Positions 9,934-44,400 of a DNA stretch of 64,000 bases are shown one piece after another. A program made the position numbers and the translations under genes. Origin of the DNA: Candidatus Omnitrophota bacterium (GTDB taxonomy: Bacteria > Omnitrophota > Gorgyraeia > Zapsychrales > Zapsychraceae); the NCBI GenBank assembly GCA_018062515.1, contig JAGOSC010000001.1:40765-104764 (forward strand). The letters are read 5' to 3'. Under the pieces are notes generated by a model. It was given only the letters and a program-made list of their open reading frames with translations. It was not told the DNA's origin and made no database searches. Each line of letters starts with the position of its first letter. Position 1 is the stretch's first letter.

Positions 9934-11360
<1,427 letters not shown>

Positions 11361-11365
11361 TTAAC

Positions 11366-13751: not shown

Positions 13752-13760
13752 ATTCAGTCC

Positions 13761-14869: not shown

Positions 14870-14873
14870 AGGG

Positions 14874-15092: not shown

Positions 15093-15179
15093 AAAAATAT
15101 CCTTTCCTTTAACTTTTTTCTTAATTTGAATTCAATTATAACAACACATCACCCGTTGTAAATAAAGCAATTACAAAAA

Positions 15180-17499: not shown

Positions 17500-17590
17500 T
17501 AAAATATTTTCTTAAACGTTAATTTACTGCGAGTATAGCAAAATCTATTTTGACAATCAATGTATTTACCGGAAATATCATAAGTCATTT

Positions 17591-18625: not shown

Positions 18626-18805
18626 AAAAAAAGTTTAAGTAAAATTTCGAAATCCTAAATACTAAATTCGAAACAATACCTAAAATCCAAATGTTTTAAT
18701 TTTCTAAACTTTCTTTGCGTTATTATTTTTTCAAAAATTCGAAATTGTTTCGGAATTCGACTTTCGATATTCGAGATTAACTGGTTTATTTTCTGTCGAA
18801 CAATA

Positions 18806-20002: not shown

Positions 20003-20230
20003 CTATCTTATGCTGGACAATTGATCTTCCGTATTTATAACCGCGCCTAATATGAGTGGTAGATTTGTGATTGGGGTGACGTTGATAATGACCGGCATTA
20101 AACCATCATCAATTTGAATATTCTCAAAATTGTATACCTTATTACCCGCGTCAAGATTATTCCCTTGACCTCTAATTTCTAATTCCAATAAATCAAGGCT
20201 AAAATCAACCCCACCTGTAGGACTCTGCGC
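20003..20230 (-). other. Family C-terminal conserved domain of about 70 aa (P1 copy). The same domain ends P2 (34746-34990), P3 (38425-38700) and P4 (54757-55000).
   Basis: Four-way alignment by eye gives GG(I/V)D(F/L)NPxLLDL(E/Q)IxGxG - 20-30 aa - NIxIxxGxxP(V/I)IINxTPxTNxPxLLG, then a short acidic/polar tail. I do not recognise the domain. Confidence 0.7.
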
Positions 20231-23200
20231 AGCTCCAGATTTACTTTGTGAAAGGTCATTTGTCGTCGAAGCATTAGAAAAACCATTCTTTAAAGCGGGT
20301 TGTCTATTTATTATGTCCCTTTTTCCATTTTCAAATTTTCGGCTGAAATCTTTAAAATCTTCCGGAAACAATTGCGATACCATTTCAATACCTTCACTGA
20401 CCGTCATATTAGAAACTGCATTCTCAATATACTTCTTTCCGGTAATTTCCGTCCACTCTTTCGACGCCTCAACAAAGACATTTAATAATGGCCGCCCTGT
20501 CAACATAGCGCCTTTAAGGACCGGCTTTGCCGCGGGATATAATTTAGCCCATTTACTTTCCTTCATGGACAAATCGATATAAGCCGTCATCATTCTTTCT
20601 GCCATAGAAACAGAAATCAAACTTCCGACTACATCTTTTATCTCCGCGTCTTGCTTCTTGATCAATTCATTAATATTGTCTTCTAATATTTGTGGGCCGT
20701 AAATTTTGACTAACGTTAGCGCATCTTTTCTGAGCTTCATATCTTGAAATTTTATTTTTCCCATCAGACTCTCCGTCATCTTATAAACTGCTGGCTGCCA
20801 TAAGGAACTCAGGAAATAACGGTTTGTCTTTTCATAAAAATTCTTTTTTAAAATTTGTCTAAAATCCTGTTCCTGCTCATTGGATTCATCCCTCTCAATG
20901 TCCTCAACCACAATATATTTCGCCTGTTCTTGAGCGGCACGTACAGTATCTTCGTCGCTCAAGCTAATATACGACCCGATCGTTTGCAAAGTTTCCATGC
21001 CATTTGCCCAGTCAGTTGGAAAAAGATACATGGCCTGTGTAAAAGCCTTCAAGAAGGTTGAAAAATTCTTTGAAATGTGAGAATTTTTCACTTCAGATAC
21101 AGCTCTCATACTGATCATATTCATCGTCATTTTAAGATCAAACCCCTTATCTAAAACCTCCTGTATGCTCTCCAATGATATGCTCGTCATTTTCGATGAA
21201 GCGCTGTCAGTATTTATAAAAATAGTATCAATCCCTGTCTTTATAAGATCTTTTTCTCTTAATAAAAGCCCTTTAAATAAAACCTTGGCACCTTCGCTCT
21301 GTTTCTTATTTAATGTCCCAACGTTCCCTCTATCAATCAATACCAAGCCACCATCCGGGGTAATCATTACATTAGCCTGATGTAGGTCAGCATGGAAAAC
21401 TCCGTCGACAAATATATTGTGCAACAATAATTGACGTAATAATGAACGTAATTTATCGTAATCAAATTTCAATAGCTTTTCTGATAAACCGTTTAACTCT
21501 GTTTCAGAAAAGCCGGCTTTCTTAAGACCTAAAATAATATGAGCTTGCTTAGAGTCAAGCTTCACTAATTCACTATAAATACGCTTGGCTTCTAGAGGTG
21601 AATACCCCGCCTTTGTCACATCTTCAATAGAAACAGGGTTTTGATTAGGCGCAAGATTTAAAATAGGAATACCCTGAATTTCCTGTTCAACAATCAAAGA
21701 CTTGGTTGCGTAAAAAATCTTCGGATGAATCAAATGTACACCTGCTTCTTTTTGTAAATCTTCCGACCATGAATAATCTAAATCAGTAAGCATATCGGAA
21801 AATTTAACCTCATTCATAAAATCCATCTCAAGAGTGACCCACTCTTTTACCGTTTGGACTAAATCACCCAAGTTAATAGCTTCTCCTCTATATACGTCAC
21901 CTTGAAGATCTTCCGAGACGGATTCAAGTGTTGTAAAATCTGTATCTAAGGTTACTTCCATATCCGGACGTCTAATTTTATAGACAACCGGAACGCCAGC
22001 CTCTTCACGTTTTATCTTATATTGATTTGCTTTTGCGACAATATACGCCACCAGCCCGCTATTCATAATATCTTTACTTTGAAACAATGCCGATAACTGT
22101 GATCTTATTTCATTAGCCTCAGCCTCACTCTTAGCATTTTTGAGCACTAATTGGGATAATAGTTCAATATCCAACCATTTTCCTCTATTTACCTGCTTGA
22201 TCGATGCTACACCGACGGGGTTGTCCATTTCTTGAACAAAGATGTCACTGAACGGTATTTCATTCTCTAAAACAGAAAAACTCGCTATTTTTGTAATTTC
22301 TGGTGCGTTATTTCTTAAAGATCCCAGGTTAGAGCGCATACGTTTATCCGGAACTAAAGTTTCATTTTCCGATAAATATTGAGATACTTTAATACCGACG
22401 GAACCCAATACACCCAGAAAAACAGCTAATCGTTCTCCGACGCTGGTCTTTTCAAAATTCCCCTTAGCGCGTAATTGAGCTAAAGCCTTAATGACATGAA
22501 CCCGTCGATAAGCGGGAAATTTTTTCATAACAACCAAGAAAACTTTTTGTAGAAGAAGTCTCGCCTCACTTTCAAGACCGGGCATATTCTCCGGAAAAAT
22601 AAATATGAATGTCTTTTCCAAAAAATCCGACATAATTCGTACATCATTTTCATCTTGCGGATCCAAAACTCCATTATCCCCCAACATAAACCCTTCGATA
22701 AATTTATCCCGCATGGTTGACGGAAGCAGCTTCACATCACTTGGCAACGTTGTAAAATCTATATTTAATTTCGTTTCAGCATCCACGACAAACTTCGGTT
22801 TTTCCTGAGCCCCGACAACCCATAATAAAATATCCTTTCGCTCGTCCATTCTCGCCGCCCCAAAAAGATGCAGAACGGTTTCTGAAATAAAATCGTGCGT
22901 TCTCAAATCTTTATTCGGCGACAGCAAATTATTAACGTATAGCTCTTTAGTAATGTATGCCACCTCTTCTAAGTGCTTGACATATTTATTGGCGATCTGC
23001 ATTAACAAATCATCTCTGAGTATGCTGGGTTCGGGCATAAATTTTGTTAAGGCGTCAATATTGTCGGTTAGACCCAATTGCGTATTTTCGGGTAATTGTT
23101 TCCATAACATGTAAGCTGTTGCACCATAACGAGACGTTTTTTGGGGTGACAATAATAAAGGAATCATTGTTTGATAGAAATCCAGTAATTCATATATTCT

Positions 23201-26200
23201 TTCTGGTGCTATTTCTATCTGTTGATTTAATTTCTCCAAGCGCCCCACATCATCATCCATTTCTCCCAAAAGAGTCCACATATCCTGCATATCTGTTTCT
23301 TTCCCGGACACTTGACGGGCTAATTTTACCAAAGCTGGTAAATCAGCAATAATTTCAGGAAATACATCGGTTTCCCACATATCAATAACACCGTCTTTAA
23401 TGAGCGATTTATGAGGCATTGACGTTGTTAACCAGTTCAACCTTTCTGGGAGCGGCTTATAATCGCCATACACATATCCTTCGCCATGAATTTTTATATG
23501 CTCGTTTATGAGTCTCGTATAAACCGAAGAATTCTTAAAAAACTTTGCCATTATTTTCCGGTAGGGCACTTTCTCCCCACTCGTATGGTCCTTCAGAAAA
23601 CCGATTGGATCGTTGATAATTTGGTTACCAACATTCGGATTTTGCAATAATGGGACTACTTCTAAAAAATTACCTTGTAAATTATTTTTGATTATGTAAT
23701 TTTCCCATACCGTATCCAGTGTTGCGTTTGGAATAGCGACACCAAGTAAATTTTCTTTAATCTGCGCATATGAAATTTTACTTACATCATCTTTTTCAAA
23801 TTTAAAGTTCAGGCTTGTACTAGCAGAAATCACTCCGTCTTTGTTCTGAGAATAAGAAACCCTTAGCTCCATAAGATCATCCAGCCTATCCATACTATTC
23901 TTTTCCATCCATTTCGGATCACCCAATTTCTTAAACAGAATCAATGTCATTAAATTGGCAAAAAAATCATTGTATCCGGATAGTGAAAAATCTTCACCCC
24001 TATATTCAACTGTTGTATTAAGCGCCACATATTGTAATCTCTTTTTCAAAAGCTGCTTCAATTGATCGATGGATAAATTCGTTAAACTGGTTAGAAAAAT
24101 AGATTGATGATCATATTGATTATCATTCCAACCAAAATTATGAAGCGCGAATCGAGATATAATGGTCTTGAATGATCCTTTACCTTCTGCCTCAGGCATA
24201 ATACTCGTCTTACCTGATTTAAAATCGGGCGTCCCCTCGTCCTTTGAAACCCCGCGTGATTGATACATGTACACTCTTAAAGGTGTTGCAGCACTTAAGG
24301 TGGTCAAGGCCGAATAAATTGTTTCATCGACATAATTCTGATCACTCATTTTTCCAGACTCTTCCATCTTTTCACGCAACAAAGCTAAATAAACCTCGCC
24401 TGATTTTTCCGAAGCTTGAAATGTTTTTGACGTTTGACTAAAAAGGTATTCAAGCAGTGTACTTTGTAAATTCTTTAGATCTGAAATAGGCGCATCGTTA
24501 TCTTGATCTTTCACTGCCTTGAGATATTGCCTATAGATTACATCAGTAACCAATTTTTCGGTTAACTTAAGGGCGTCATTTTTGGAAAACATGCCTAAGA
24601 ACCATACAGCCACTTCTTGGGGATTTTGTTTAAACGAGCTGATAAAAAATTTAGTCAAACGTAAATTGACGTCCGACTCTAAAAATACACTTTCAAATAT
24701 TCTTCGACGCTGATCATAGTCAAGCCTATCTTTCATCCAAGAAAAAAGTTCAGTAATTGAAGCGTTTTCTGTAACAGAAACCTTTATCATCGATGCAACC
24801 TCATCAAAATTCTTATCCAAATATTCAGAAAGAGCCCAGTCCGGCAACTCTGATAAGGCTTTAAAAGATTTAATCTGCTTTTTATCCGGCATATTGTAGT
24901 CTAATCCGGTTTCATTTTGAAACGTGTCTGGCACATGCGCTATTCTTTCTAAGCGAGGCGAACTTATATCTTCTGTAGTATTTAGTTGGCTTGCCACCCA
25001 TAGGTCAGGGTCATTTTTCAGTAAAGAATCAATCGCATCATTATTTCTACCCAACTCAATATCAAAATATTTTTTCAACCTTTGACGCGCTATATTTAAT
25101 GCTTCTGACTTCGAATGTTCTCTTAGTAAAAGGTTATAATATTTTAAAAAAATAGTATCGAGATCCTGCTGTGACCCTCGAGTATGTAAATCAACACCTG
25201 GAAAAGAGCCATCTAAATAACGACTATTGATGTTTTTTATCGGCCTTTTTAAAATATACTGAAGAAGGATAATATTTTGAAGATTTTTTCGGGTATCCGC
25301 GGATTGAATATCGCGATATGAGGGATTTTGTAAATAAATGGAATTGCTTTTTTGTCGTAACTTTGCCTGAACATCCGTGGTTGGAACCTTAACATTCACG
25401 GACGGTTGTTGATCAATATATTTGGCGTAGAAAAAGGCAGAAATTAATTTCTTCGGATCTTTTATTGCCTTTTCAAAAATTGCTTCCGCTACGTAAGCTT
25501 TTTTTCCTTGCGGTAATGGCACCTTATTCCCTAAAATGTCAAGTCTTCCCGCATCTTTTGCATCTGTAAACATCGGGATCAATTCTTCAACTTCATTCAA
25601 GGGAAGCAAAAAATTATCAAAATCAGCGTCACTGAGGCTATTTTGTAGAGAAGTAATGGAATTTAATTTATTTAATAAATCCTTTCCGGAAGCAGATCTT
25701 CTCGTATCTCCACCCTTTTCTTTCGATTTTTCATAATCTCTTATGTAAGTTTCAACATCACCCTTTAAGTCTTTTAAAAAATCTCCATAAAAATCAGAAT
25801 CCTTACGTTCTGATACTTTGATTGTCTCATTATCTTGCCCGAATTCATAAATGGCAGCAGCACTTCTCATATCAGAATAATCAATTTTTTTATTATATAC
25901 ACTTATATCAAGCCTGCGTGTCATTGCTTCGTGAACCGCCTGTACATAAACGTTACGCAAAAAAGAAGTTTTTAAATCTTTTTCTTTAACTAAAGCTTTT
26001 AAGAAATTCATGCGCCTTCGCGTAACAAGCATTCCCGTTAATTCATCTAAAGCTGTGACGCTTTCTGCATTCTGTATCTGATCTAATAAATCTTGGTCGC
26101 TCGCATCCATAAAAAGTCGAAAATCAACGTCTTGACTTTTTATTTCTCCTTCTCCTGCCATATTTACTCGTGGAGCCTTGATATTTGTAAAAATATTTGT

Positions 26201-28264
26201 TTTTTGTTCATAAATTAATTGAGATAATTTATGTTTCCTGAGGCTTATGTAGGGATGCGAATCTAATATATTTTCGGCTTGGCTGGATTGTTGCATATAT
26301 TCCAGAAATCTCATAGCGTCAATGGCTCCTAGTACAGAATATCCCGCCTTATTCATCAATTCCAAAGCCACCATGTCTGCATCATATTCACCATTCTTGA
26401 TCATTTGCAACAAATAAGGCAAAGTCTCAGATCCATAAAAATCTCGAATATTAAGGCCGTAATGGGTGGTGTTTTGTATGGAATGGCTTAACTCATGCGC
26501 CATGACAAAGGCAATTGCATCTTCCGTAAGCGGAACGTTCATTTTCCCAGCGATATCATACAAAGCTTCATACAAACCTTTAAAGAAATATACATCCGTA
26601 CGATTACGTATCACAAATGCATTAATCTCATTTGAATCGATAATGCGCAACTCACCCGGTGAATCCTTGGTTTTTACTGTATAAATATCAATGAGGCGAT
26701 CAAATATTGTATGCATTTTTTCAGTAACCATATCGGTGTTTCGCGGTAATATGCCTGTATGTTCCATTTGCTTTTCGATCATAACAATGTTCCGTTCAAA
26801 ATTGGCTTCCACGTCGTCAACTGAGATACCCTGTTTTTTAGCAAGCTCCTCAATTAAAATTTCATCATACGTTTCATTCTTCTCAATTTTATATACAGGC
26901 TGTTTCGGCGTGGTTTCTTTTAGTTTTAAATTTTTGACAGGCTCTATTCTTGCTGCGGTTGTGTTCACATCTTTAGAACCAGTTAAGATCGCTGGATCAT
27001 TTACCGGAGGTAATTCTTCTTCCTGCCCTTCTTCCTCGTTAAATCTTTGTTTCATAAATTCATTAACCGTCTCCGGAGATATTTTTGAACTGATAAATGC
27101 TCCCGCAATGAAATGCCTTTTTGTAGCTTTATTTGTCTTAGCCAATTGTTCCTGGGTCACATTATCCGGCGTCACTGTCTGAAGCGGGACGATAATCTTG
27201 GTCAAAACCATACCGCCGGAAAAATATTTTCTGGGAATGATTTCCTGTGATACCGCGTCATATTCATCTTTGATATAATTATAAACGCCTTGTTTAAATG
27301 CTTCTAAATATTGCGCGTAAATTTTTTCTTTAGCGGAAGGATCATCAATCTCAACACCCCCGATTTTCTTCCGATCTGAAAATTTCTGATTCAATATACT
27401 TTGTTTCAGATTCTGTTTGTACCACTTCGCTAAAATCAATGAGTTATAGACTTGACGTAACTTGGAAAAATTTTTACCTTCGTTCACTTCTTTTTCAATT
27501 TCAGGTAAAATAATTTCCCGTATAACCTCAGATCCCAGTTTACTAGTATTTTGATTTTCTGATTCGCTTCTGCCTTTTAAACTTCTTTCATCGGTTCGGC
27601 TATGTTCCAATGCCACGTAATCTTCTTCCAACATAACCTTTAAATGGCTTTCAATAACATAGACAATATCGCCATTTTGATAAACTACGGCCTTTTCGGG
27701 AACTATCCAAACTTTATTAAATGTGTTAACAGGAACTTCAGTTGTTCCATATTCTTCCTGCGCACGTTGATAAATCTTCTTCCAAAATGCTTGTCCCAAG
27801 GCCTCTTCCGGATAAATTAATGACGCCGTCAATTGCTTTAAAATATAATCCTGGGCTAATAAATCGCGGCCCATTTCTGTCATACCAAATTCATTGGGTA
27901 CAATCCGATCCTTTTCATAGGGAGATAAATTCACCCATAGATCATCTTCTGGAATGGTTAATGAAGCCAAAAAATATTTAATTAACTTATTGGCCTCTTC
28001 TTTTAAGCGGTCGGGATTTAAGTCAACATCTCCGCTATCTAAAATGAAATCAAAATGAAAAGGATTATTAACCGCTATTTTCATACCGGTCAACATCGGA
28101 GGAATAAAGGCAGAAGTACGGGTAATCATCATACCCGGGAGAGGTAAATTAAGAACACTTTGCGCATAACTTGGCTGAGGCGGGACTACAAATGTCACAG
28201 CCAAAATAAGGCTTAGACAGGAAGAGAAAATTTTGTATAAGAAATGGTTTTTAAGCCGGGTCAT
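20003..28264 (-). CDS. Giant secreted protein P1 (2753 aa): signal peptide, family N-terminal domain, M48-type metallopeptidase domain, long helical region, UbiB/ABC1-type atypical kinase domain, family C-terminal domain.
   Basis: Uninterrupted 8.3-kb ORF. N-terminal signal sequence (LSLILAVTFVVPPQPSYAQS). HELSH...EYDAD (M48). ASIKQVNRG ... VYKIRRP ... EMDFMNE ... FHADLHQANVMITPDGGLVLIDRG (UbiB). C-terminus GGVDFSLDLLELEIRGQG...PVIINVTPITNLPLILG. Confidence 0.9.
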   Translation of the reverse strand: MTRLKNHFLYKIFSSCLSLILAVTFVVPPQPSYAQSVLNLPLPGMMITRTSAFIPPMLTGMKIAVNNPFHFDFILDSGDVDLNPDRLKEEANKLIKYFLASLTIPEDDLWVNLSPYEKDRIVPNEFGMTEMGRDLLAQDYILKQLTASLIYPEEALGQAFWKKIYQRAQEEYGTTEVPVNTFNKVWIVPEKAVVYQNGDIVYVIESHLKVMLEEDYVALEHSRTDERSLKGRSESENQNTSKLGSEVIREIILPEIEKEVNEGKNFSKLRQVYNSLILAKWYKQNLKQSILNQKFSDRKKIGGVEIDDPSAKEKIYAQYLEAFKQGVYNYIKDEYDAVSQEIIPRKYFSGGMVLTKIIVPLQTVTPDNVTQEQLAKTNKATKRHFIAGAFISSKISPETVNEFMKQRFNEEEGQEEELPPVNDPAILTGSKDVNTTAARIEPVKNLKLKETTPKQPVYKIEKNETYDEILIEELAKKQGISVDDVEANFERNIVMIEKQMEHTGILPRNTDMVTEKMHTIFDRLIDIYTVKTKDSPGELRIIDSNEINAFVIRNRTDVYFFKGLYEALYDIAGKMNVPLTEDAIAFVMAHELSHSIQNTTHYGLNIRDFYGSETLPYLLQMIKNGEYDADMVALELMNKAGYSVLGAIDAMRFLEYMQQSSQAENILDSHPYISLRKHKLSQLIYEQKTNIFTNIKAPRVNMAGEGEIKSQDVDFRLFMDASDQDLLDQIQNAESVTALDELTGMLVTRRRMNFLKALVKEKDLKTSFLRNVYVQAVHEAMTRRLDISVYNKKIDYSDMRSAAAIYEFGQDNETIKVSERKDSDFYGDFLKDLKGDVETYIRDYEKSKEKGGDTRRSASGKDLLNKLNSITSLQNSLSDADFDNFLLPLNEVEELIPMFTDAKDAGRLDILGNKVPLPQGKKAYVAEAIFEKAIKDPKKLISAFFYAKYIDQQPSVNVKVPTTDVQAKLRQKSNSIYLQNPSYRDIQSADTRKNLQNIILLQYILKRPIKNINSRYLDGSFPGVDLHTRGSQQDLDTIFLKYYNLLLREHSKSEALNIARQRLKKYFDIELGRNNDAIDSLLKNDPDLWVASQLNTTEDISSPRLERIAHVPDTFQNETGLDYNMPDKKQIKSFKALSELPDWALSEYLDKNFDEVASMIKVSVTENASITELFSWMKDRLDYDQRRRIFESVFLESDVNLRLTKFFISSFKQNPQEVAVWFLGMFSKNDALKLTEKLVTDVIYRQYLKAVKDQDNDAPISDLKNLQSTLLEYLFSQTSKTFQASEKSGEVYLALLREKMEESGKMSDQNYVDETIYSALTTLSAATPLRVYMYQSRGVSKDEGTPDFKSGKTSIMPEAEGKGSFKTIISRFALHNFGWNDNQYDHQSIFLTSLTNLSIDQLKQLLKKRLQYVALNTTVEYRGEDFSLSGYNDFFANLMTLILFKKLGDPKWMEKNSMDRLDDLMELRVSYSQNKDGVISASTSLNFKFEKDDVSKISYAQIKENLLGVAIPNATLDTVWENYIIKNNLQGNFLEVVPLLQNPNVGNQIINDPIGFLKDHTSGEKVPYRKIMAKFFKNSSVYTRLINEHIKIHGEGYVYGDYKPLPERLNWLTTSMPHKSLIKDGVIDMWETDVFPEIIADLPALVKLARQVSGKETDMQDMWTLLGEMDDDVGRLEKLNQQIEIAPERIYELLDFYQTMIPLLLSPQKTSRYGATAYMLWKQLPENTQLGLTDNIDALTKFMPEPSILRDDLLMQIANKYVKHLEEVAYITKELYVNNLLSPNKDLRTHDFISETVLHLFGAARMDERKDILLWVVGAQEKPKFVVDAETKLNIDFTTLPSDVKLLPSTMRDKFIEGFMLGDNGVLDPQDENDVRIMSDFLEKTFIFIFPENMPGLESEARLLLQKVFLVVMKKFPAYRRVHVIKALAQLRAKGNFEKTSVGERLAVFLGVLGSVGIKVSQYLSENETLVPDKRMRSNLGSLRNNAPEITKIASFSVLENEIPFSDIFVQEMDNPVGVASIKQVNRGKWLDIELLSQLVLKNAKSEAEANEIRSQLSALFQSKDIMNSGLVAYIVAKANQYKIKREEAGVPVVYKIRRPDMEVTLDTDFTTLESVSEDLQGDVYRGEAINLGDLVQTVKEWVTLEMDFMNEVKFSDMLTDLDYSWSEDLQKEAGVHLIHPKIFYATKSLIVEQEIQGIPILNLAPNQNPVSIEDVTKAGYSPLEAKRIYSELVKLDSKQAHIILGLKKAGFSETELNGLSEKLLKFDYDKLRSLLRQLLLHNIFVDGVFHADLHQANVMITPDGGLVLIDRGNVGTLNKKQSEGAKVLFKGLLLREKDLIKTGIDTIFINTDSASSKMTSISLESIQEVLDKGFDLKMTMNMISMRAVSEVKNSHISKNFSTFLKAFTQAMYLFPTDWANGMETLQTIGSYISLSDEDTVRAAQEQAKYIVVEDIERDESNEQEQDFRQILKKNFYEKTNRYFLSSLWQPAVYKMTESLMGKIKFQDMKLRKDALTLVKIYGPQILEDNINELIKKQDAEIKDVVGSLISVSMAERMMTAYIDLSMKESKWAKLYPAAKPVLKGAMLTGRPLLNVFVEASKEWTEITGKKYIENAVSNMTVSEGIEMVSQLFPEDFKDFSRKFENGKRDIINRQPALKNGFSNASTTNDLSQSKSGAAQSPTGGVDFSLDLLELEIRGQGNNLDAGNKVYNFENIQIDDGLMPVIINVTPITNLPLILGAVINTEDQLSSIR
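21030..22250 (-). other. UbiB/ABC1/ADCK-type atypical protein-kinase-like domain inside P1.
   Basis: Ordered family motifs: PVGVASIKQVNRG (A-S-I-x-Q-V-H-like), VVYKIRRP (VAVKVQRP-like), EMDFMNEVKF (E-x-D-F salt-bridge Glu), VHLIHPKIFY...LIVEQEIQG, and FHADLHQANVMI...LIDRG (F-H-A-D-P-H-P-G-N ... D-F-G equivalents). About 60 aa are inserted after the first motif. Confidence 0.6.
26290..26790 (-). other. M48-family (HtpX/BepA/Ste24-like) Zn-metallopeptidase domain inside P1.
   Basis: AFVMAHELSHSIQ (HExxH at 26483-26497) followed about 50 aa later by KNGEYDADMVALELMNKAGY, the M48 third-ligand E-x-x-x-(E/D)-A-D motif. Confidence 0.6.
27060..28264 (-). other. Family N-terminal conserved domain (signal peptide plus about 330 aa), P1 copy. 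Also at 37280-38357 (P2) and 49250-50334 (P3).
   Basis: Shared blocks: LNLP.PG, NPL.F.F, LIKYFLA.LT.P...LWVNLSPYEKD(R/K)(I/M)IP.EFG.TEMGRDLLAQDY.LKQ, YGTTEIPV.TFNK.WIVPE.A.VY, SHLKVML..DY.AL, NEGE.F..LRQ..NS.ILA.W(Y/F)K.NL, PR.YFSGG. Confidence 0.7.
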
Positions 28265-34745: not shown

Positions 34746-37700
34746 TTACGAGGAATGTTGATTGGCTACTTGTAACGGAACTTTATCAATAGAATTTTCC
34801 TGATCTGATTCGGATTCTCCCAAAAGCATTTGGATATTGATCACCGGCGCGACATTGATGATGACAGGCTGTATCCCTTCAATCTGAATGTTTTGAATTT
34901 TGATTGGATCAAACTCAAGATTATATTTAATTTCCGTCCCTTGTGTGTTTAATTGCATATGATCTGGATTAAAATCAATACCACCCAAAGGATCACCGGT
35001 TAAAGGTTTATCTTTATTATCCGTCGCGTTAGGATTCTTCTTTCTTCCTAAATTCTTAAAGCCCAGAGTCATTGCCCAGAACAGAAGCTGACTAAAGTGA
35101 ATAAGTTCTTCTCTGTCCTCATTTGATATATTTTTTTCCTCAATTAACGTGTCGGAAAAGTTAACAAAATCACCGTAAAGCAATGTCCCCGACGCAACGG
35201 CAATCAATATTTGTGAAAGAATTTTATCAAGATTCTTATTTTCAGAAACATCATAATTTGACAGGAACCACTGGATGACCGGATGATCAAGCGTTAATGA
35301 TTGACCACCAGAATTTTTTTCCAGAGCTTTCTTAAAATCCTGAACCATACTGTCATTCGCGGAATTTTCTAATTCTATATTCAACCTTTGAGAATTAAGG
35401 GCAATTTCTTTCATCTGTTTGACACTTAACGAACGCCCTATCGAGTCCACCGCTGCCCGCCAAACCTTTTCTTTTGCGCTCTGACCAAACAGTTGCGTAA
35501 AAATCAAATCATCATCTATAGTATGGGCAACGTTCATACTGTCACTATACGTGAGACCATTATCGTTAATATATTTCACCGCCTCAGGAGATATATTTTT
35601 CTTCAAATTTTCCTGAAAATCGTCATTTATAGGTTTTGGCAAGATGAATGGCGGTGTGATAGGAAACGATTTAAAGTCTTTATTATATAATTCAAACGCT
35701 GCTTGCTGGAGCAACTCGGGATACATGAGCATGTCATCAATCATTTCCCGAATCGTTTCCCCGTCCCTGGCATCTCGCACCTTTTTTGGTTTTAAACCTT
35801 TGACCCCTTTTTTCCGTAAAGATTTATAGACGGAATTAAAAATATAGGTGGCTACATAATCGTAAGGATTCTGATACCCATCATTCTCCTGTTTTCTTAG
35901 AATAATCCTCCCTAGACCGATTAAATCCAAAATAGGCCTTCTATTCTGCGCCATTGAATATAAATAAGCGCCCGTTTCATTAATAATCCTAATCTGTAGT
36001 CTGTCATCAAAGGAATCCCATAAACCATCATTAAGAGTTTTAAAATAATCTGTTCCGCTATACGAAGATGCGTCTCTAAAATACGCATGTTCGCCTTCAT
36101 GAACTCTTATATAGTTAATAATGTCCAGCTTGATTTCATCAGGCGACATCCCCGAAAAAGCTTCTCTGATTAATTGATCAATTCTGGATGATGTGACTGA
36201 ATCCGTTAATAAATAATTATTTCCATTTAACGTGTTAATGATATTTTGGGTTTCTTTATTTACATAATCCATATTGATAAAAAGTTCTCCATCCAGGTGT
36301 GCCCCCTGATGAGCAACCAAAGGATGGAATGGTAAATCAATTTTATTTACTTGCCGATAATAAAAAACTTTAATTTCTCTGCCGGCTAAAATAAATTTTT
36401 CCTCTTTATCCACCACAAATATGGCGATAACAGGAAGCATATCACCCGATTTTTTTTCGATTAGATCCATCCCCCCTAAAAAACCATTCCGAAGAAGGTA
36501 CACCTCGAATTCATCCCACTTCTTAAGAAAAGTAAAATCCTTACTTTTATAAAAAGCTGGATCCTCTTTCTGATAAGACATAACTAAATATTCCATATAC
36601 GCTTCTAAAGTTTCGGAAATATCTTTAGCTTTACGAACGAGATCAACTTCGAGCTCTCTGCGATTAGGAGATGAGTCAGTAACTGCGGTCATATACTTTG
36701 ACCAAACCTCTTCAAAAAATATCCGCAATTTTCTCGTTTCTTCTGATTCAATCATCCTCTGTTCCTGCCAATTTTTGTCATTGATGATATCCAACATCGC
36801 TTCTTTTAATAATCGGCCATTATCTTTTAAGGGGTCTTTTATTTCCAGCTTTGAAGCATCATAGGATGCAATTTTATAAAGATAAATAAACAGTTCAAAT
36901 ATTTTTGGATCATTTCCGAGATTTTTAAGATTATCCGAAAAATACTCTACGTCAACGGTCGTTTCTAAATAACGTTTCCACTCATTTATATCCGTCGAAA
37001 ACAAAAGAGGCTGCTCTGTCTTCTTCATATGCTCCAGGTACTGAGTTAGATCAGATAAAGCTATTTTTGTACTTTGCTGATTAGCGTGGTTGACTTCATT
37101 GACTAGAAAAACTTCGAGATTATCAGGCTTTCCTCCATCTTCTTTTTTATAATACTCTCCTGTTTGCGTAATCCCCAAAGCGACTAGCATCAGTGAAAAC
37201 ACACTAAAACTGGCATGGGTCGTTCTTTTAAGCCAGTTGACGGATGGTTTTTTATTTTCCTTACTGGTCAGTATTGCAGCATCTATTTTTGCCGCGTTTA
37301 TCCCCCCGGAAAAATACTTTCGAGGAATCATTTCCTGTGTTGTTGAATCGTATTCATCACGCACAAAATTATGTACACCCTTTTTAAATGATTCGACATA
37401 CTGCTCGTAAATTTTCTCGTTCCCATCTTTATCTTCAACCTCTAAACCTTTAACTTTTCCCTTATTAACAAAGATTCCACCTAATAAACTTTTTTGTAAA
37501 TTATGTTTGTACCACGTCGCTAAAATCATCGAATTATAAACTTGCCGTAAATTGGCGAATGTCTCGCCTTCATTCACTTCTTTCTCAACGGCCGGAATCA
37601 ATATGTTCTTCACTATTTCCGAAGACACGCCGCTGGTGATTTCAATATCTTCTTTTGTCACCTTGCCCAACCCGTGCTGTTGACTATTCTGATTATGCTC

Positions 37701-38357
37701 TAAAGCCAGATAATCCTCCTCGAGCATGACTTTAAGATGACTATCGACGACAAAAACGGTTGTTCCATTAACATACACATCCGCTCTTTCTGGAACAATC
37801 CAAATCTTGTTAAAAGTATTCATTGGGATTTCTGTAGTTCCATATTGTTCTTGAGCCTTCTTGTAAACTTCATCCCAGAATTTTCCCCCCAGTTTTTCGT
37901 CCGGATTCATTAATGAAGCTGAAAATTGTTTCAACATATAATCCTGGGCTAATAAATCCCTTCCCATTTGTGTTAATCCAAAATCAGTCGGAATAATACG
38001 ATCCTTTTCATACGGTGATAAATTCACCCACATTTGTTCGGATGGAACAGTAAGCGTTGTCAAGAAATACTCAATGAGCTTATTAGCCTCGGCGCGAAAT
38101 TCTTCCGAACCTTGAACTTTGTCGCCCGGATCGATAATAAAATCAAATTTCAAGGGGTTGTCAGGATAAATCGTAATGCCGGTGATGATGGGAGGATTAT
38201 AGGGCTGGCTGACTAGCACTGGTGTTCCCAGAGCAGGCAGATTGAGCACACTTTGCGCGTAACTTTGCTGTGGTGGAACAACAAACGTTACCACCAAAAT
38301 AAGGCTTAAATAAGCCGAAAAAGTCCTGAATATTATGTGTGTTCTTAGTTGACGCAT
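34746..38357 (-). CDS. Giant-family secreted protein P2 (1203 aa): signal peptide, family N-terminal domain, internal TM, HEGEH motif region, family C-terminal domain.
   Basis: N-terminus about 60% identical to P1 and P3 (LSLILVVTFVVPPQQSYAQSVLNLP..., WVNLSPYEKDRIIP..., HLKVMLEEDYLALEH). HEGEH at 36087-36101. C-terminus GGIDFNPDHMQLNTQG...PVIINVAPVINIQMLLG. Confidence 0.9.
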   Translation of the reverse strand: MRQLRTHIIFRTFSAYLSLILVVTFVVPPQQSYAQSVLNLPALGTPVLVSQPYNPPIITGITIYPDNPLKFDFIIDPGDKVQGSEEFRAEANKLIEYFLTTLTVPSEQMWVNLSPYEKDRIIPTDFGLTQMGRDLLAQDYMLKQFSASLMNPDEKLGGKFWDEVYKKAQEQYGTTEIPMNTFNKIWIVPERADVYVNGTTVFVVDSHLKVMLEEDYLALEHNQNSQQHGLGKVTKEDIEITSGVSSEIVKNILIPAVEKEVNEGETFANLRQVYNSMILATWYKHNLQKSLLGGIFVNKGKVKGLEVEDKDGNEKIYEQYVESFKKGVHNFVRDEYDSTTQEMIPRKYFSGGINAAKIDAAILTSKENKKPSVNWLKRTTHASFSVFSLMLVALGITQTGEYYKKEDGGKPDNLEVFLVNEVNHANQQSTKIALSDLTQYLEHMKKTEQPLLFSTDINEWKRYLETTVDVEYFSDNLKNLGNDPKIFELFIYLYKIASYDASKLEIKDPLKDNGRLLKEAMLDIINDKNWQEQRMIESEETRKLRIFFEEVWSKYMTAVTDSSPNRRELEVDLVRKAKDISETLEAYMEYLVMSYQKEDPAFYKSKDFTFLKKWDEFEVYLLRNGFLGGMDLIEKKSGDMLPVIAIFVVDKEEKFILAGREIKVFYYRQVNKIDLPFHPLVAHQGAHLDGELFINMDYVNKETQNIINTLNGNNYLLTDSVTSSRIDQLIREAFSGMSPDEIKLDIINYIRVHEGEHAYFRDASSYSGTDYFKTLNDGLWDSFDDRLQIRIINETGAYLYSMAQNRRPILDLIGLGRIILRKQENDGYQNPYDYVATYIFNSVYKSLRKKGVKGLKPKKVRDARDGETIREMIDDMLMYPELLQQAAFELYNKDFKSFPITPPFILPKPINDDFQENLKKNISPEAVKYINDNGLTYSDSMNVAHTIDDDLIFTQLFGQSAKEKVWRAAVDSIGRSLSVKQMKEIALNSQRLNIELENSANDSMVQDFKKALEKNSGGQSLTLDHPVIQWFLSNYDVSENKNLDKILSQILIAVASGTLLYGDFVNFSDTLIEEKNISNEDREELIHFSQLLFWAMTLGFKNLGRKKNPNATDNKDKPLTGDPLGGIDFNPDHMQLNTQGTEIKYNLEFDPIKIQNIQIEGIQPVIINVAPVINIQMLLGESESDQENSIDKVPLQVANQHSS

Positions 38358-38424: not shown

Positions 38425-41400
38425 CTAGGAATTAATCCTAGAATGCAGTCGTTTTGGGTCATCACTCAGGTGCTTATACTGGAAACTATACTCTGTTGGA
38501 TTACCTTCCTGATCGACGAGGCCTAGAAGAAACGGCATATTGGTCACTGGTGTTAAATTGATAATGACGGGAATAAAACCTTCGATATTTTTGAGAAGAT
38601 CGGCTGGCTGCTGCAACATCGGCAACGGGATACCGTTACCGTCACGTTTAATTTGAAGGTCTAAAAGCTCCGGATTCAAATCAATCCCGCCGGGGGTTTC
38701 AGGATTTTTGGTATTCGACACGGGAACACCATTAACTTTCATGTCCCCACCACTCCATCCATTGAGATACAGTTTATTTTTCCAATTCTTTTGTTCACGC
38801 TGAAACTCCTTCTCGGTAAAAATCTTTTCTCTATTACTTCCACGAGAATTTTTGCGAGGCGCTAATTTGATACCCTTCTTTTCCAAAGCTGTTTCCGCTA
38901 AACGAAGCATATATTTTTTTGCTAGCCATTCATCCCATCTATATTGGATCTTCTCCGGGTGGTCATTAGAATTTTCAACCTTTAGAAGTTCCCCACGAAT
39001 CTTCTTTTTAAGTTTTTTAAGCTTTTCTAAATCTAGTACGCCATTACCTTTTATTTGGAGAGCATGCACCCATATTTGCGCATCAATCCGATGTGCTAGC
39101 AATTTCCGGTCATGAGGCGATAAGACTGTCCAGTCTTCAGCTTTCAAATTCTTTAACTGAGCAAGTTCTCTTGCGTTTAACGAGAGCAATTCATGAGTTA
39201 TCTTAGCTAAAGTCATTTTTAACATTCGCTCAATTTCTACATTTATTAGTGGTTGTTCCTCGGGGTCTACATCAAAATTAATTAGATCTTCCCATTCGTT
39301 TTCATCCTGAAAATCAGAAATCATAGCGTGATCAATTTTTTCTTTAACGCTTGATAATATTTTAGTCCATCTTTCCGACGATGGACCGATAAATTTCTCT
39401 CCACTTTCTTCTTTTATTTTCGTTTCCTGAATGCGAGCGTTAAGAATGCTGACGACAAATGATTTTAACGGCTGTTGAGAAATCCATTCAATCAATTTCT
39501 CGTCCTGAATAGCCGGATTTTCTTCAATTAAATGATTTAATTTTGAATCAAGATCGCTAAATATATCCTTCAAGAATTTAGCTAATTTTTGCTGATCAAC
39601 CGGCGTGCTTTGGGCATCAAGATAATCTAAAATCTTATTTAATTCCGCCTTCTGCTTCTCATTAAAGGCATTCAGAGTTTTATGATCAGGCAGTTCATTT
39701 TCCTCCAAAACACTTTCAATGACCAGTTCAAGTAGGTATTGAATTTCTTGTTTAAGCATCAATTCCTTATCCGGCATTTTCGAAATTTTTTCAACGATGG
39801 CTAATGAAAATTCGACAAATCCGGACGACGACCAATTAGGACTAGAGGTAAAAAATATCTTAAAATCCTCATCAATTTTACTTAATAATAAAGTTAAAAT
39901 CTGGTCAGCACTATGATTCACAACTATTAACCGCGCATTAATCCTTTTAATGAGATCCTCTGATTCAGCTGATTTTCTTTTTTGTTCAAGCTGTAAACTA
40001 GTTAGACCGCTTAAATCACTTTTTAATGCCTCTAGTTCTAAAAGCGGACGATTCTCTTTTTCCAAATACCGTGAAAGCGGCAACTCAAGTACATAACTAA
40101 AAGGTTCATATTGATATTCGATTCCTTCCTGAGATAATTTAGTGAGGAGCTTTACGGCGCTTGATTCTCCGTGCGTATGGACCCAAATTTGTGCTTGTAT
40201 ACGTGATAAAACAATCGCTATGCCTTGCAGGCTGCCAGACACATTTATATCTTCGCTTCCTGTGAGACTATTTAAACCAGCCGAAACGACTGTTACTAAA
40301 TCTTTCTGCACTTCAGAATCCAACTTCTTAATATATTCTTGATAATTTGAAAATTTGCCTTTGTCATTTCTCAAACCATTCTCAAGCACATCATTAATTT
40401 TTGTTAACTCAGTACGAGTAAGTTGCGCCAACATGTTCTGAAAAATTTGATCTTCTTGCGTGTTTTCATTCTGGGATCCGAGAATTTTTGTTACAGTCAT
40501 CCATTCTTCCAAAGAATATTTTCCTGTTTCCACCGCCGTCGGTTGTTTTCTAACTGAAGCAGGATTGTTTGGTTCAGCCGAAGGCTCATTCAATTTAATC
40601 ATATCCTTCTCGGAAAATATTTCTTCATTCTCTAAGTCATGTTCATCATGCATAATCGCTGCTTCTAAAACATACAAAAGAGGTTGATGAGGCTCAATCA
40701 TAATTCCCGCGCGAGATGTTTCGATAAGAAGCTGTAAAACGCCTAATTTCTTAAGTTCGAGTAAGCGTTTTTGGGCTTTAAATCTTCTTAAAACAATATT
40801 CCACTCGACGGGTTTATTGACCCTTAAAACTCTAAGTAAATTCTTGGGATTATTACGCCACGTTTCATATCCTTGCGACTTTTCTACTTCCAGACTGTCG
40901 ATCCCAGTCACAATCGCATTCCGGTAATTTGTCTGCTCCTCAGAAGTGAACTGGCTAAACATTCCCATTAAAGCATATTCGAGGGTTGGTTCATCATTCG
41001 TGTTCCCAAGCTCCATGATTTTAATTAACATGTCGAGCTCTTCCACGTTCAATTCATTGAGTAGTTTCTTAAATTCTTCATCAGATTTTTCACCTCTTTC
41101 CGTTAAATAGATGGGAACCATTTCCCCCGACTTATTCTCTTTATATCGATAAATAATGTGAGGTGCAGTAAGAACAACATTAATGGCATACCATTCCAAA
41201 GGTGGACGGCGGCCTTGTTTCCTCAAGGCCATCTTTTTTTCTTCCGATGCATTCACCCAATCGTTCGTTTCAGATTCATACATTTGTAATGTTTTAATCT
41301 CAATGGAGGTTAATGTCTTGACTGGTTTTGATAATAAGTCCTTAATATACGCCTTTGTGACCATCATAGCCTGATCCTCATCATGATTATCTTTTTCAAG

Positions 41401-44400
41401 AGCAAATCGGAGCATAAACAATACAGCTTCCACCTCCTCGGGAGAACGCATTGAGTAACCATAAAGCGCGTCTTGAAATTTATTAAAAACACGTGATCTC
41501 AACTTTTCTAGAGTTTCAGTTTTTCTCTCAATTTGCACAAGCACCCATAATTGAGCGGTAACACGGTCTAATAAAATCTGCCATTCTTCCGGCGCGCGAT
41601 TCCCCTTTGTTCGCTGAAACCATTCTTCCGGAGATTCTTCTTCGATCTGCTTACTTTCTCGTTTCATTTTCTCAAACTCTTGATTTTTTACTAATTCACG
41701 GCCTTTAAGCCGTAATAATTTCTTCAATTCCTGATCTTCAACCATACTCCATTCTTTATGGTTTTCGAGCGCATTCTCAAGGTTTCTCTCAATAATATCG
41801 CTTAATTCGATAAGTTCATCATGGTCTAAGTCAGTTAATTGATGACTAAATATTTCTAACGGCTGCTGCAATAATGTATCCATTAGATCCTCAGTATTCC
41901 CTTCCCCACTCTGATGATTGGCTAATAGTTCACTTAACTTCGACCAATTTCCATCATTGACCTTTTGACTTTCATTCTTCATAGCATATTCAATCAATAA
42001 TAAAAAGGGATGACTATGTATCCATTTTAAATGTTCTTTATTGGCCATTTTTGGATTATTTTCTAAGTGTTTTTCTATCATAACCAAGAATTCGTCCATT
42101 GCTGCCTTAAACGCTTCGCTTAATTGCTCTCCAGAAATTTGATGGTTTAAATTTTTTACATAAAACAATAATTCTTGTATTTTAATTCTTTGTTCCTGGT
42201 TAATTTCTTTATGAAGCTCTTTCTCTAATGCAACTTCTGCAATATATTGGAAAACATATTTAATTGGATGTTCGATATAATTTTGTTCAGAAAGCTTTTC
42301 AAGAATAATCAAGGTGTTCTCAATAAATCCTGACACAGACCAAGGATCACTATCCTTTAGGGATTCAATTAAATCTTGATCAATATATTTTAAGTACAAA
42401 AACAACAAATCATTGAGGCTTTTTTCAAAAGCCGATAGGCGCGCATTAATACGCTCATCGATCATGTTTAATTGCTCTTTGGTTATATATTCTTGTATAA
42501 AATCATTTTCGGTTTCTGTTCTTTTTTCTCGCAGTTGTTCAGAATTTAAATTGCTCAATCCATCTGATAATTCATTCAGCGATTTTTCCATTTTTGACTT
42601 TGGAATATATTGAATATATTCTTCAAATTCCTTTGATAAAGACGCTGCAAGGATATAAATAAAAGGTTGATCCATCATAGGAAAAATATTTTCGCGGATA
42701 ATTCGTGTTAAAAATTTTACACCTTTTAATGTCCCATTTTGAAGCAGCCAGATTTGCGCTTCAATACGTTGAAAAACAATTTTCAATTTTATAAAATCGC
42801 TATCCTCGTAAGATCCTGACGAATTTATAAATTGATCATTTTTTAGACTATCTATACCAGCCTGGAGTAAGTTTGTAAAATTATCCTTCAATTCCGCGTC
42901 TAAACCATCAAAATATGATTCATACTCTAATTCTTGATCATAAGTTATGCCCATAATCGCAGGCTTATATATGTCGCGCATTTCAATTAACTGTTCAACA
43001 CTAAATTGATCCAACAAAGTTCTAAAAGTCTTATCTTCTTCTGTGTTCTTAACATTTAGAGGGCCAAGAATGTCGGTGATGATCACCCATTCAGTCGCTG
43101 TGTAAGACCCTAATTCGCGTTTACTCTTCTTTTCCTTTTTTTGTTCCGGTTTACTTTCGTTTCCCTTTTCTTCAAAGTCAGTTGCAATATCCGAAGTCTC
43201 CATCCACGTGAGGAAATGGTCACTAGTAAACACATCTTTATTTTCCAAATTGGCTATACCGTACTTAATTGCTCCCTCAAGAACATATATGAAAGGCTGA
43301 TTAGTGGAAATTTCAAAACCAAAACCACCCAAACTGAAAATTTCAGCTAAACGCTGTAAAGCGGCTTCACTACCCATTTCAACCAAACGAATTTGGGCTT
43401 CAATACGTTTTAAAACAATTTCCCATGCCTCTGGATTGTAGGAGCTTAAAGCCCTAAACCAATTATCGTCCTGTTCTTTTTTAGTGCCATGATGAATTTG
43501 TAAAGCTAATGTTTCTAGGCTATCTACCCCCGAAATAATGATATTTTTAAAATCCTTGGTTTGCTCAATTATTCTTTTCGCTTCTATATAGTCTCCGTCA
43601 TTCGCATTCTGCCCTAGTTGCATGACATACTTTAATCCATCCAACTCTATAGGACTCAATTTGTTTATTAAAGACTTGAAAATAATATCAGAACTTTGAG
43701 CATGTGGTGTTGGATAGTCAGGATGAAATTCTAATAATCCTTCACCATCGTCAAATAATAATATTTCATTTGGTGAATTAAGGACAAATCCTAAAGCATA
43801 CCATTCATCAGGCGGCCGACGGTTATTTGATCGAAGCTCTGAGCGTTTCTCTTTTGAAGTATTAACCCAATCGCCGGTTTTATATTCGTATTCTTCGAGT
43901 TGATTAATCTCCGTACCCAGTAAGTGTCTGATTGGTTTTTTGAGAAGGTTCTCAAATTTAGCCTTGGAAATCATCGCCTGATCAGCTATTTTCTCATCAA
44001 GAATTTTCAACCATTTTTGAGTCGGGCGAATATACGAAACAGCTTGCCCATTTAAGCTCGGTTGTGAATCCAGAGCCTTTTTAACCAATTTTTCCAAATC
44101 TTCAAGCTGAGGCTTCTGCATGACGGCTATTGTTTGCCGGAATAAAGCGTCATTATCTTCGTCGGATATTAATTCCCGCGATATGATTTCCGGTTCTGTT
44201 GAATTTTGCCTATTCGCCACGTCAATCAACTCTTTCATGCGGGAAATATTCCATGCGGAATCTATGTCAGAATTCTCTGCCTGCAGCGGCTCGATGACCA
44301 TCAGCCTTTTTATTCCCAGCAACGGCTTACGCAACATGTTAGCACTCCCGACATCGACGTTCTTGCCATTCCGCGCCCACAATTCAATAATCTTATTCAT

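Follow-up and report, generated by a model that had tools for sequence, protein, structure and literature searches.

The biochemical role of UbiB/ABC1/ADCK proteins, which are linked to human disease through COQ8A and COQ8B, has long been debated, ATPase, protein kinase and lipid kinase activities all being considered. To our knowledge, the only functional link between this family and the M48 peptidases is found on plastoglobules and cyanoglobules. On these droplets, ABC1K kinases and an M48 protease (PGM48 or sll1280) share the same prenyl-lipid-rich surface (PMC12223511, PMC8956952). Here we describe a gene that joins the two kinds of domain in one polypeptide. It lies in a stretch of 64,000 nucleotides, hereafter the window, from a Candidatus Omnitrophota bacterium (assembly GCA_018062515.1, contig JAGOSC010000001.1, positions 40,765 to 104,764). 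Members of the Omnitrophota are ultra-small and live as predators or in dependence on a host; for their large proteins, a role at the cell surface or on target cells has been proposed (PMC10066038; bioRxiv 10.1101/2023.11.21.568195; 10.64898/2026.06.07.730766). We consider it reasonably probable that the window protein carries a competent UbiB/ABC1 domain within an M48-X-UbiB core, where X is a family-specific region, and that this core is exported, and possibly delivered, as enzyme cargo.

The gene is a single minus-strand open reading frame (ORF) at 20003..28264, whose 8,262 nt translate into a protein of 2753 amino acids (aa), as read from the ORF list and the translation. A preliminary description of the stretch had quoted a series of kinase motifs, from ASIKQVNRG to IDRG, and had assigned them to the C-terminal third of a giant protein; all of them occur in this frame in that order, and the domain occupies aa ~1856-2480 of 2753. 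The coordinates given then, 21030-22250 (aa 2006-2411), enclose the kinase motifs but stop short on the 5' side of the gene, missing the family-specific KxGQ part and its helices, which lie upstream of aa 2006; the folded unit spans ~aa 1856-2480. The parts of the gene are the following.

20003..28264, minus strand: whole gene; order of parts signal peptide, N-module, M48, middle of ~1150 aa, UbiB/ABC1, tail, C-module
28163..28264, minus strand: predicted Sec signal peptide, aa 1-34, MTRLKNHFLYK / IFSSCLSLILAVTFVV / PPQPSYA, cut before QS, recognised by eye
27209..28162, minus strand: N-module, aa 35-352, ending in PRKYFSGG
26195..26767, minus strand: M48 zinc metallopeptidase domain, aa ~500-690, Pfam PF01435
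26483-26497 and 26375-26389, minus strand: M48 motifs HELSH (aa 590-594) and EYDAD (aa 626-630)
22700..26167, minus strand: middle region, aa ~700-1855, family-conserved, without Pfam or PDB match
20825..22699, minus strand: UbiB/ABC1 atypical kinase-like domain with its N-terminal helices, aa 1856-2480, from PF03109, AlphaFold2 and Foldseek
22379..22393, minus strand: KxGQ motif, here IKVSQ, aa 1958-1962; K1959 and Q1962 kept, Gly replaced by Ser
22187..22207, minus strand: equivalent of the A-rich loop, ASIKQVN, aa 2020-2026, with A2020, S2021, K2023 and Q2024
22001..22177, minus strand: helical insertion 1, aa ~2030-2088, between the A-loop and the beta3 Lys, from alignments and model
21965..21988, minus strand: beta3 strand VVYKIRRP, aa 2093-2100, with the predicted ATP-binding Lys2096, invariant
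21809..21829, minus strand: alphaC motif EMDFMNE, aa 2146-2152, with E2146, D2148 and E2152; E2146 and E2152 invariant
aa 2180-2198, minus strand: HPKIFY / VEQEIQG
21479..21667, minus strand: helical insertion 2, aa ~2200-2262, from the hinge to helix alphaE
21371..21394, minus strand: catalytic loop HADLHQAN, aa 2291-2298, with D2293 and N2298; D, H and N invariant
21326..21337, minus strand: metal-binding IDRG, aa 2310-2313; D2311 and the Gly invariant, the residue after D2311 free
20261..20824, minus strand: post-kinase tail, aa 2481-2668, conserved by close orthologs only (35-37% identity in P0141-P0143)
20030..20215, minus strand: C-module, aa 2684-2745, GGVDF...PVIINVTPITNLPLILG, then an acidic tail

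We find that the flagged stretch is a genuine UbiB/ABC1-type kinase-like domain. The profile check proposed in the preliminary description returns Pfam ABC1 (PF03109) at E=5.6e-20, with 72 bits against a gathering cut-off of 22.9, and the same profile matches all 20 aligned members of the clade. Compared with the PDB, the family profile retrieves Rv3197 at E=1.8e-22 and COQ8A at E=6e-10. An AlphaFold2 model of aa 1856-2480 (m7c02e1099c33), built from a 21-sequence alignment, reaches a pLDDT of 77.6 and a pTM of 0.74, and in it helices precede strand beta1, as for the KxGQ part. The top 12 Foldseek matches of this model in the PDB all belong to the UbiB family (MSMEG_1954, COQ8A and Rv3197; E 1.8e-9 to 4.6e-6, target TM-score 0.44-0.66), tyrosine kinases and Rio2 following in the ranking only at E>2e-3. 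The gene is nevertheless no canonical UbiB ortholog. It scores 101.9 against a cut-off of 487.55 with the equivalog model TIGR01982 and 58.1 against 667 with PRK04750; the C-terminal transmembrane helices of the ~550-aa UbiB proper are absent from the 2753-aa protein, with which the hydrophobic tails of the canonical UbiB matches P0004-P0020 do not align, and there are no ubi or men neighbours either at the window locus or at that of an ortholog from a second genome (L003, described below). Nor does a PADLOC scan identify an anti-phage defence kinase, its only match being one of 45 residues to the kinase loop of PD-T4-6 (E=8.6e-4); PADLOC and PHROGs together yield short matches only, nearly all in the region of the kinase catalytic loop.

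Is this domain an active enzyme? In the preliminary description, the replacement of PGN by QAN and of DFG by DRG was taken as a possible sign of altered catalysis or of a pseudokinase. We assessed conservation in an alignment of 20 sequences, comprising the window protein and 19 distant large relatives, with an overall identity of ~20%. Despite this divergence K1959, Q1962, A2020, K2096, E2146, E2152, D2293, H2295, N2298, D2311 and G2313 are invariant in 20/20, and the catalytic Lys, Glu and Asp residues that were to be looked for by alignment to UbiB/COQ8 (K2096, E2146, D2293 and D2311) are thereby all accounted for. The substituted positions behave differently: in 'DFG', the position between D and G takes R, I, V, L, A, N, D, S or C within the clade, and the two residues before the catalytic Asn vary, Pro-Gly not being conserved there. 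Because the odd positions vary freely in the clade while the catalytic residues do not vary at all, we reject the pseudokinase reading. Comparison with 17 ordinary UbiB proteins reveals that the Lys and Gln of KxGQ, the Ala-Ser...Gln-Val of the A-loop and the beta3 Lys2096 are kept, as are the alphaC ExDxxxE, the H-x-D-x-H-x-x-N loop and the D-x-G metal site. In the A-loop, PVGVASIKQVN aligns with PIASASLAQVH, retaining A2020, S2021 and Q2024; K2023 is a signature of the clade, canonical UbiB having Gly or Ala at this position. Judging from these residues, the UbiB/ABC1 domain is probably catalytically competent. The two insertions set it apart from its kin, as 72 residues separate the A-loop from the beta3 Lys, compared with 15 in relatives of 1.8 kaa (thousand aa), and 98 residues precede the catalytic loop, compared with 34-73 in relatives.

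The M48 peptidase domain reported for the same protein in the preliminary description is equally well founded. Pfam Peptidase_M48 (PF01435) scores 49.3 bits against a cut-off of 20.3, HELSH stands at aa 590-594, and the residues H590, E591, H594, E626 and D630 of the HExxH...ExxAD pattern are invariant in 20/20; E626 is presumably the third zinc ligand, by motif analogy. In the PDB, the family profile finds the M48 structure 3c37 at E=3e-18 and BepA at E=2.5e-13.

The pairing of M48 with ABC1 is no one-off, as it recurs in at least 55 representative clusters. An exhaustive HMMER search with the ABC1 domain, run over 1.84 billion representatives of clusters at 50% identity, gave 1,810 matches at E<1e-3, 97 at E<1e-10 and 20 at E<1e-30. 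Among the best 40 representatives, 36 are proteins of 1.4-7.3 kaa that hold the ABC1 domain in their C-terminal part. M48 lies upstream of ABC1 in 55 of the 66 listed matches of at least 1,000 aa, at a median offset of 1,399 aa, and in none of the 82 short listed matches. Both Pfam domains are present in all 20 aligned members, and the spacing from HExxH to KxGQ amounts to 1365 aa in the window protein and 1176-1357 aa in the 19 relatives. The middle region of ~1,150 aa, for which neither Pfam nor the PDB offers a match, is detectable by BLAST in 33 of the 66 large relatives. On these sequence grounds, M48-X-ABC1 is a conserved three-part core made of an M48 peptidase, a family-specific region of ~1,150-1,350 aa and a C-terminal, predicted UbiB-like ATPase/kinase. 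A word-indexed search retrieved three close relatives only, all of them fragments of longer ORFs cut at contig ends. A full-length collinear ortholog of 2951 aa is encoded in a Candidatus Omnitrophota genome from GTDB (L003); it is 55% identical to the window protein over aa 1103-2592 and has IDCG instead of IDRG.

The core occurs in two size classes. Members of the shorter class (~1.75-1.92 kaa) begin with M48 at their very start, have no hydrophobic segment and contain 0.3-0.8% Cys; an example is MBI2482569.1, 'M48 family metalloprotease [Candidatus Uhrbacteria bacterium]', which lies among genes for glycosyltransferases and a CDP-alcohol phosphatidyltransferase. At 8001-13442 of locus L031 (Candidatus Uhrbacteria, GCA_016188355.1), in the Candidate Phyla Radiation (CPR), the stand-alone M48-X-ABC1 protein has 1,813 aa; its neighbours are genes for glycosyltransferases, sugar epimerases and a CDP-alcohol phosphatidyltransferase, a setting of envelope and lipid synthesis. 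The longer class (2.4-7.3 kaa) mostly has a hydrophobic N-terminal segment, and ten of its members carry the N-module of the window protein. Several M48-X-ABC1 proteins of 3.1-3.7 kaa (P0143, P0144, P0147, P0148 and P0280) have a different N-terminus that looks conserved, …R/K-x-V-x-x-I-T-L-V-A-F-L-F…, and normal Cys content, which suggests, from sequence, a second carrier or anchor type for the same core.

In the window protein and in the L003 ortholog the core is flanked by an N-module and a C-module. The region of the N-module (first ~352 aa) gives at least 1,595 database matches, nearly all of the named ones from Candidatus Omnitrophica/Omnitrophota, and aa 1-352 of the window protein share 55-62% identity with at least 120 listed members of the family. 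Together with the signal peptide, the N-module is recognised by the signature LNLPxPG ... WVNLSPYEKDRIIP ... PRKYFSGG, which the window protein has. The cargo behind it differs from match to match and includes HAD, NUDIX, ankyrin, HEAT, metallophosphatase and methyltransferase domains. The C-module, with the pattern GGID[FL]N ... G-x-x-PVIINIxP ... LG near the C-terminus and then an acidic tail, is common to all four giant proteins of the window and to complete short family members of 570-730 aa; it matches none of the NCBIfam sorting-signal models. The N-module (~320 aa) has no solved structural relative, and PDB sequence searches with the middle region, with the tail and C-module, and with the N-module gave no match. 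Altogether, three N-modules and four C-modules are found in the window, in four minus-strand ORFs of 2,753, 1,203, 3,969 and at least 3,061 aa. The paralogs have a near-identical signal peptide and N-module and unrelated central cargo. In the window organism the core appears, by sequence, to sit as cargo in a modular carrier seen almost only in Omnitrophota. The other three carriers are the following.

34746..38357, minus strand: paralog of 1203 aa, N-module and C-module with different cargo, 0 Cys
38425..50334, minus strand: paralog of 3969 aa, N-module and C-module, its sole Cys in the signal peptide
54757..63942, minus strand: paralog of at least 3061 aa, C-module and LRR, 0 Cys, its N-terminus outside the window

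In the last of these, the LRR lie at aa ~1937-2151, a Walker-A-like GPSGQGKD stands near the visible start, and neither M48 nor ABC1 is present. Directly downstream of the 1203-aa paralog, an ORF of 217 aa (33984-34637, minus strand) has a lipoprotein-like start, MKSKIIILVSITILSAYSC, and no Pfam match.

Sec export had been asserted for the protein at the outset, and both signal-peptide anatomy and cysteine content speak in its favour, although 'secreted' stays a reading of the sequence. By inspection, the N-terminus has the n/h/c anatomy of a signal peptide, with R3, K5 and K11, a hydrophobic stretch at aa 12-27, and S32-Y33-A34 before Q35. The arrangement Pro-Pro-x-x-Ser-Tyr-Ala before Gln-Ser is kept in the paralogs and in the family consensus 'PPxxxxAQxxLNLPxPG'. 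Only two hydrophobic segments are found in the window protein, the signal peptide and a proline-rich one within the C-module; there is no internal hydrophobic helix that could span a membrane. Exclusion of cysteine is a trait of proteins that leave the cytoplasm and either stay unfolded or work in oxidising surroundings. The mature window protein has 0 Cys, and so do the mature parts of all four family proteins of the window, over ~10,900 residues; with signal peptides counted in (~10,986 residues), the four contain two Cys, each located in a signal peptide. The neighbouring genes encode ~1% Cys, with 0.2-3% in all but one case. Cys content is 0.06% in 120 family members, compared with 0.3-0.8% in the 1.8-kaa relatives that lack a signal peptide. 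Given that signal-peptide anatomy and cysteine exclusion coincide, Sec export with cleavage after Ala34 is likely, short of proof. A lipoprotein modified at Cys16 is not compatible with the position of this residue at the start and not at the end of the hydrophobic stretch, nor with its being missing from the 1203-aa paralog.

How, then, would such a protein work? As judged from the features of its sequence, it would first be exported by Sec and lose its signal peptide after Ala34. The cysteine-free chain would then be displayed at the envelope or passed beyond it, the N-module, the C-module or both possibly serving as handle. The UbiB domain would bind ATP-Mg through K2096-E2146, D2293/N2298 and D2311, residues that are present in the protein. 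By analogy with COQ8 (which, like UbiB, acts in the metabolism of prenyl lipids, namely quinones), Rv3197 and the plastoglobule ABC1K proteins, its target might be a lipid, some other hydrophobic ligand or a protein associated with the membrane, with the M48 domain cleaving an associated protein substrate. The last step is the weakest and is speculative: the site of action may be a compartment that contains ATP, for instance in a host or prey cell (its cytoplasm or membrane), in which case the protein would be an effector. Given that ATP is needed and that an exported enzyme has no obvious supply of it, action in or on another cell is the most coherent option. Delivery would also suit the host-dependent or predatory way of life proposed for Omnitrophota, whose large proteins have been assigned putative roles at the cell surface.

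Several points weigh against an exported and competent enzyme. We know of no ATP source outside the cytoplasm, which makes an exported enzyme that depends on ATP a paradox, unless another cell receives it. That some relatives lack a signal peptide shows the core to be able to function within the cell that makes it. Export itself is a heuristic reading of the sequence, the N- and C-modules have no structural relatives that might tell of their function, and no secretion-system genes lie near the gene in the window or near its counterparts at L003 and L001. As to the enzyme, the Ala triad of the A-rich loop (AAAS) is reduced to a single Ala (GVAS), and this triad, in place of a Gly-rich loop, defines the UbiB family (PMC8956952). 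The two helical insertions of ~60 aa, one in the N-lobe and one before alphaE, may alter regulation or access to the active site. Moreover, the activity of UbiB-family proteins is disputed between ATPase, protein kinase and small-molecule kinase (PMC8956952).

One may take the reading of an exported enzyme cargo further, in a conjecture that has a small but real chance of being right. The N- and C-modules would form an undescribed, nearly Omnitrophota-only system for cargo export or delivery that serves many different cytoplasmic-type enzyme domains, and the M48-X-UbiB payload would be the first UbiB-family effector. With the ATP of a host or prey cell it would extract or modify isoprenoid or membrane lipids, or phosphorylate membrane proteins, while the M48 domain cuts these. 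The fusion would then be a 'Rosetta stone' for a common substrate of ABC1 and M48 proteins; if true, it would show that ABC1 kinases and M48 proteases share a substrate in general, as suspected for plastoglobules.

The main rival, which we regard as unlikely, is a membrane-tethered protein that faces the cytoplasm. The hydrophobic N-terminus would be an uncleaved anchor in the inner membrane, the bulk of the protein including the UbiB domain would be cytoplasmic, and the enzyme would act on the cell's own membrane lipids, quinones or membrane proteins, much like UbiB and HtpX-type M48 peptidases. Such a location would satisfy the need of UbiB-family enzymes for ATP, in keeping with the strong constraint on the catalytic residues, and the homologs of ~1.8 kaa without signal peptide are presumably cytoplasmic. 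The window encodes a quinol-dependent cytochrome b/Rieske, a multihaem cytochrome c, and haem and cytochrome c maturation genes, which points to the existence of a respiratory membrane; and in the 2026 Omnitrophota preprint many long proteins are interpreted as anchored in the membrane, with their domains in the cytoplasm. The N-terminus itself argues otherwise: the charges R3, K5 and K11 precede the hydrophobic stretch and the next charge is R49, a distribution that favours N-in/C-out, and a small-x-small cleavage site (S-Y-A before Q) is kept in the paralogs and in the family consensus. The total exclusion of Cys from four mature chains has no cytoplasmic rationale and is not seen in the cytoplasmic-type relatives. 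As the L003 ortholog lies among unrelated genes, there is no link to respiratory genes.

Less probable still is an exported pseudoenzyme, in which the UbiB fold would serve only to bind, in the periplasm or at the cell surface, some hydrophobic ligand such as a lipid or isoprenoid, make no use of ATP and perhaps present substrates to M48. UbiB-family proteins do bind hydrophobic small molecules, Rv3197 having been crystallised with erythromycin (PDB 5yk2). The degenerate A-rich loop (GVAS), the changes of PGN to QAN and of DFG to DRG, and the lack of a known ATP pool outside the cytoplasm would all suit a binder. Yet K2096, E2146, D2293, N2298 and D2311 are invariant in exported and non-exported members alike, which is unexpected for a mere binder, and QAN and DRG stand at positions that are variable throughout the clade. 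The idea that the frame is an ordinary UbiB, or the product of mis-assembly or mis-annotation that joined ubiB to its neighbours, has a negligible chance of being true: metagenome assemblies can yield chimeric ORFs and the closest word-indexed matches are short fragments, but these are contig-end truncations of the same long ORF, a collinear 2951-aa ortholog exists in an independent genome, dozens of independent large proteins repeat the domain order and spacing, and both the UbiB equivalog score (101.9 vs 487.55) and the absence of the canonical C-terminal transmembrane helices speak against an ordinary UbiB, so that an assembly chimera is refuted.

The domain family is well known and offers no new category; proteins of this kind already stand in public databases, where automatic annotation calls them 'M48 family metalloprotease' or 'predicted unusual protein kinase...'. 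The fusion had been called unreported. In the literature this stands: we found no paper on UbiB/ABC1 in Omnitrophota long proteins, on an M48-ABC1 fusion family in CPR or Omnitrophota, or on a UbiB-type secreted effector, and both Omnitrophota long-protein preprints leave ABC1/UbiB unmentioned, M48 likewise not turning up in term searches of them. In databases it does not, as the architecture recurs in at least 55 clusters, some of them automatically annotated, and occurs without a signal peptide in CPR. The significance lies in the fusion itself. A conserved covalent link to M48, with both active sites intact in very divergent bacteria, is a guilt-by-association clue to UbiB function, and it is in line with the occurrence of ABC1K and PGM48 together on lipid droplets of plants and cyanobacteria. 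Quinone synthesis is not generally attributed to host-dependent CPR lineages, and the presence of the core in CPR suggests, from sequence, a function independent of quinone synthesis. In addition, a carrier family with conserved ends, variable enzyme cargo and no Cys makes the destination and the ATP source of exported 'cytoplasmic' enzymes testable.

The surroundings of the gene differ from locus to locus. In the window its neighbours are GDPD, rhodanese, MoeA, DAHP synthase (downstream) and haem genes; the L003 ortholog is surrounded by TPR, GAF-ANTAR and Amt genes; and the window, L003 and L001 contexts have no common neighbour genes, hence no conserved operon or secretion neighbourhood. 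Downstream of the L003 ortholog, at 10831-12417, a 529-aa TPR / DUF4034 protein is encoded, which has no equivalent downstream of the window gene. By analogy with BepA-type M48 proteins, which carry a fused TPR, it could be a separate partner.

The window also has, on the minus strand at 3186-9611 and 9933-15962, genes for a 979-aa multihaem cytochrome c, a split cytochrome b, a Rieske protein and a HEAT-repeat protein, and a complete F-type ATP synthase operon. This respiratory block is notable, as electron transport is incomplete in the dominant Omnitrophota orders (2026 preprint). Interspersed among the giant genes are genes for haem and cofactors, at 16447-19846, 29773-33991 and 50546-54684 (minus strand); they encode glutamyl-tRNA reductase, ferrochelatase, uroporphyrinogen decarboxylase, an amine-oxidase-type (protoporphyrinogen-oxidase-like) protein, a HemN-like radical SAM protein, ResB/ResC for cytochrome c maturation, and MoeA. 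The occurrence of an 'Absence of bc1' domain near bc-complex genes looks coincidental, because the neighbours of the L003 ortholog are entirely different. Two plus-strand ORFs of 163 and 329 aa (26691-27182 and 56306-57295) run antisense inside giant genes; rather than being genes, they most likely result from the strongly skewed composition (GC skew about -0.1 to -0.2). Scans of the window for tRNA and Rfam families were empty.

How does the locus compare with known systems? Like polymorphic toxins and modular effectors, the carrier family combines conserved terminal modules (~55-62% identity) with swapped central cargo in clustered paralogs. It differs from them in having conserved modules at both ends and no match to a trafficking domain in Pfam, NCBIfam or the PDB. 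A polymorphic toxin system proper is rejected, as there is no known trafficking domain, the downstream gene is a DAHP synthase and not an immunity-like gene, and no secretion system lies nearby. The giant proteins of Omnitrophota ('Archaeovorins', Dockerin-type; West-Roberts et al. 2023 preprint; 2026 complete-genome preprint) come from the same phylum and likewise join a signal peptide or membrane segments to normally cytoplasmic domains (NUDIX, HAD, methyltransferases, kinases), but they have at least 10-30 kaa and usually many transmembrane helices. In particular, the window protein is not of the Archaeovorin type (at least ~30 kaa, many transmembrane helices, HEAT-rich), with its 2.75 kaa, no internal transmembrane helix and no HEAT match.

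Among the M48 peptidases, the closest solved relatives are periplasmic ones (BepA/YfgC and the Geobacter protein 3c37), which have the same HExxH and ExxAD Glu and are extracytoplasmic. BepA has a TPR domain of its own and serves outer-membrane protein quality control, whereas the window M48 is followed by ~1,150 aa of family-specific region and then by the kinase-like domain. For the latter, Rv3197 (MABP-1) and MSMEG_1954 (PDB 5yjz, 7cy2, 7cyr) are the best PDB matches by sequence and fold. They too belong to the UbiB family, are soluble, lack membrane helices and bind ADP/AMPPNP as well as a hydrophobic ligand; however, they are stand-alone cytoplasmic proteins of ~450 aa with no protease partner, and identity is only ~15%. 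The window domain has much in common with E. coli UbiB, yeast Coq8 and human COQ8A/ADCK3 (PF03109): a bilobed kinase-like core under a helical KxGQ cap, the Lys and Gln of KxGQ, an A-loop substituting for the Gly-rich loop (with one Ala of the triad left), the Lys of beta3, the Glu of alphaC, and the HxDxHxxN and DxG motifs. In contrast to these proteins, it sits at residue ~1900 of a 2753-aa protein that is predicted to be exported, lacks C-terminal membrane helices, contains two helical insertions of ~60 aa and the Lys of ASIKQV, does not conserve Pro-Gly or the Phe of DFG, and has no ubi neighbours. Finally, ABC1K and PGM48 of plastoglobules are separate proteins that work inside a plastid or a cyanobacterium, whereas M48-X-ABC1 unites the two domains, ~1,400 aa apart, in one polypeptide of bacteria without plastoglobules, and in the window it does so within a putatively exported protein.

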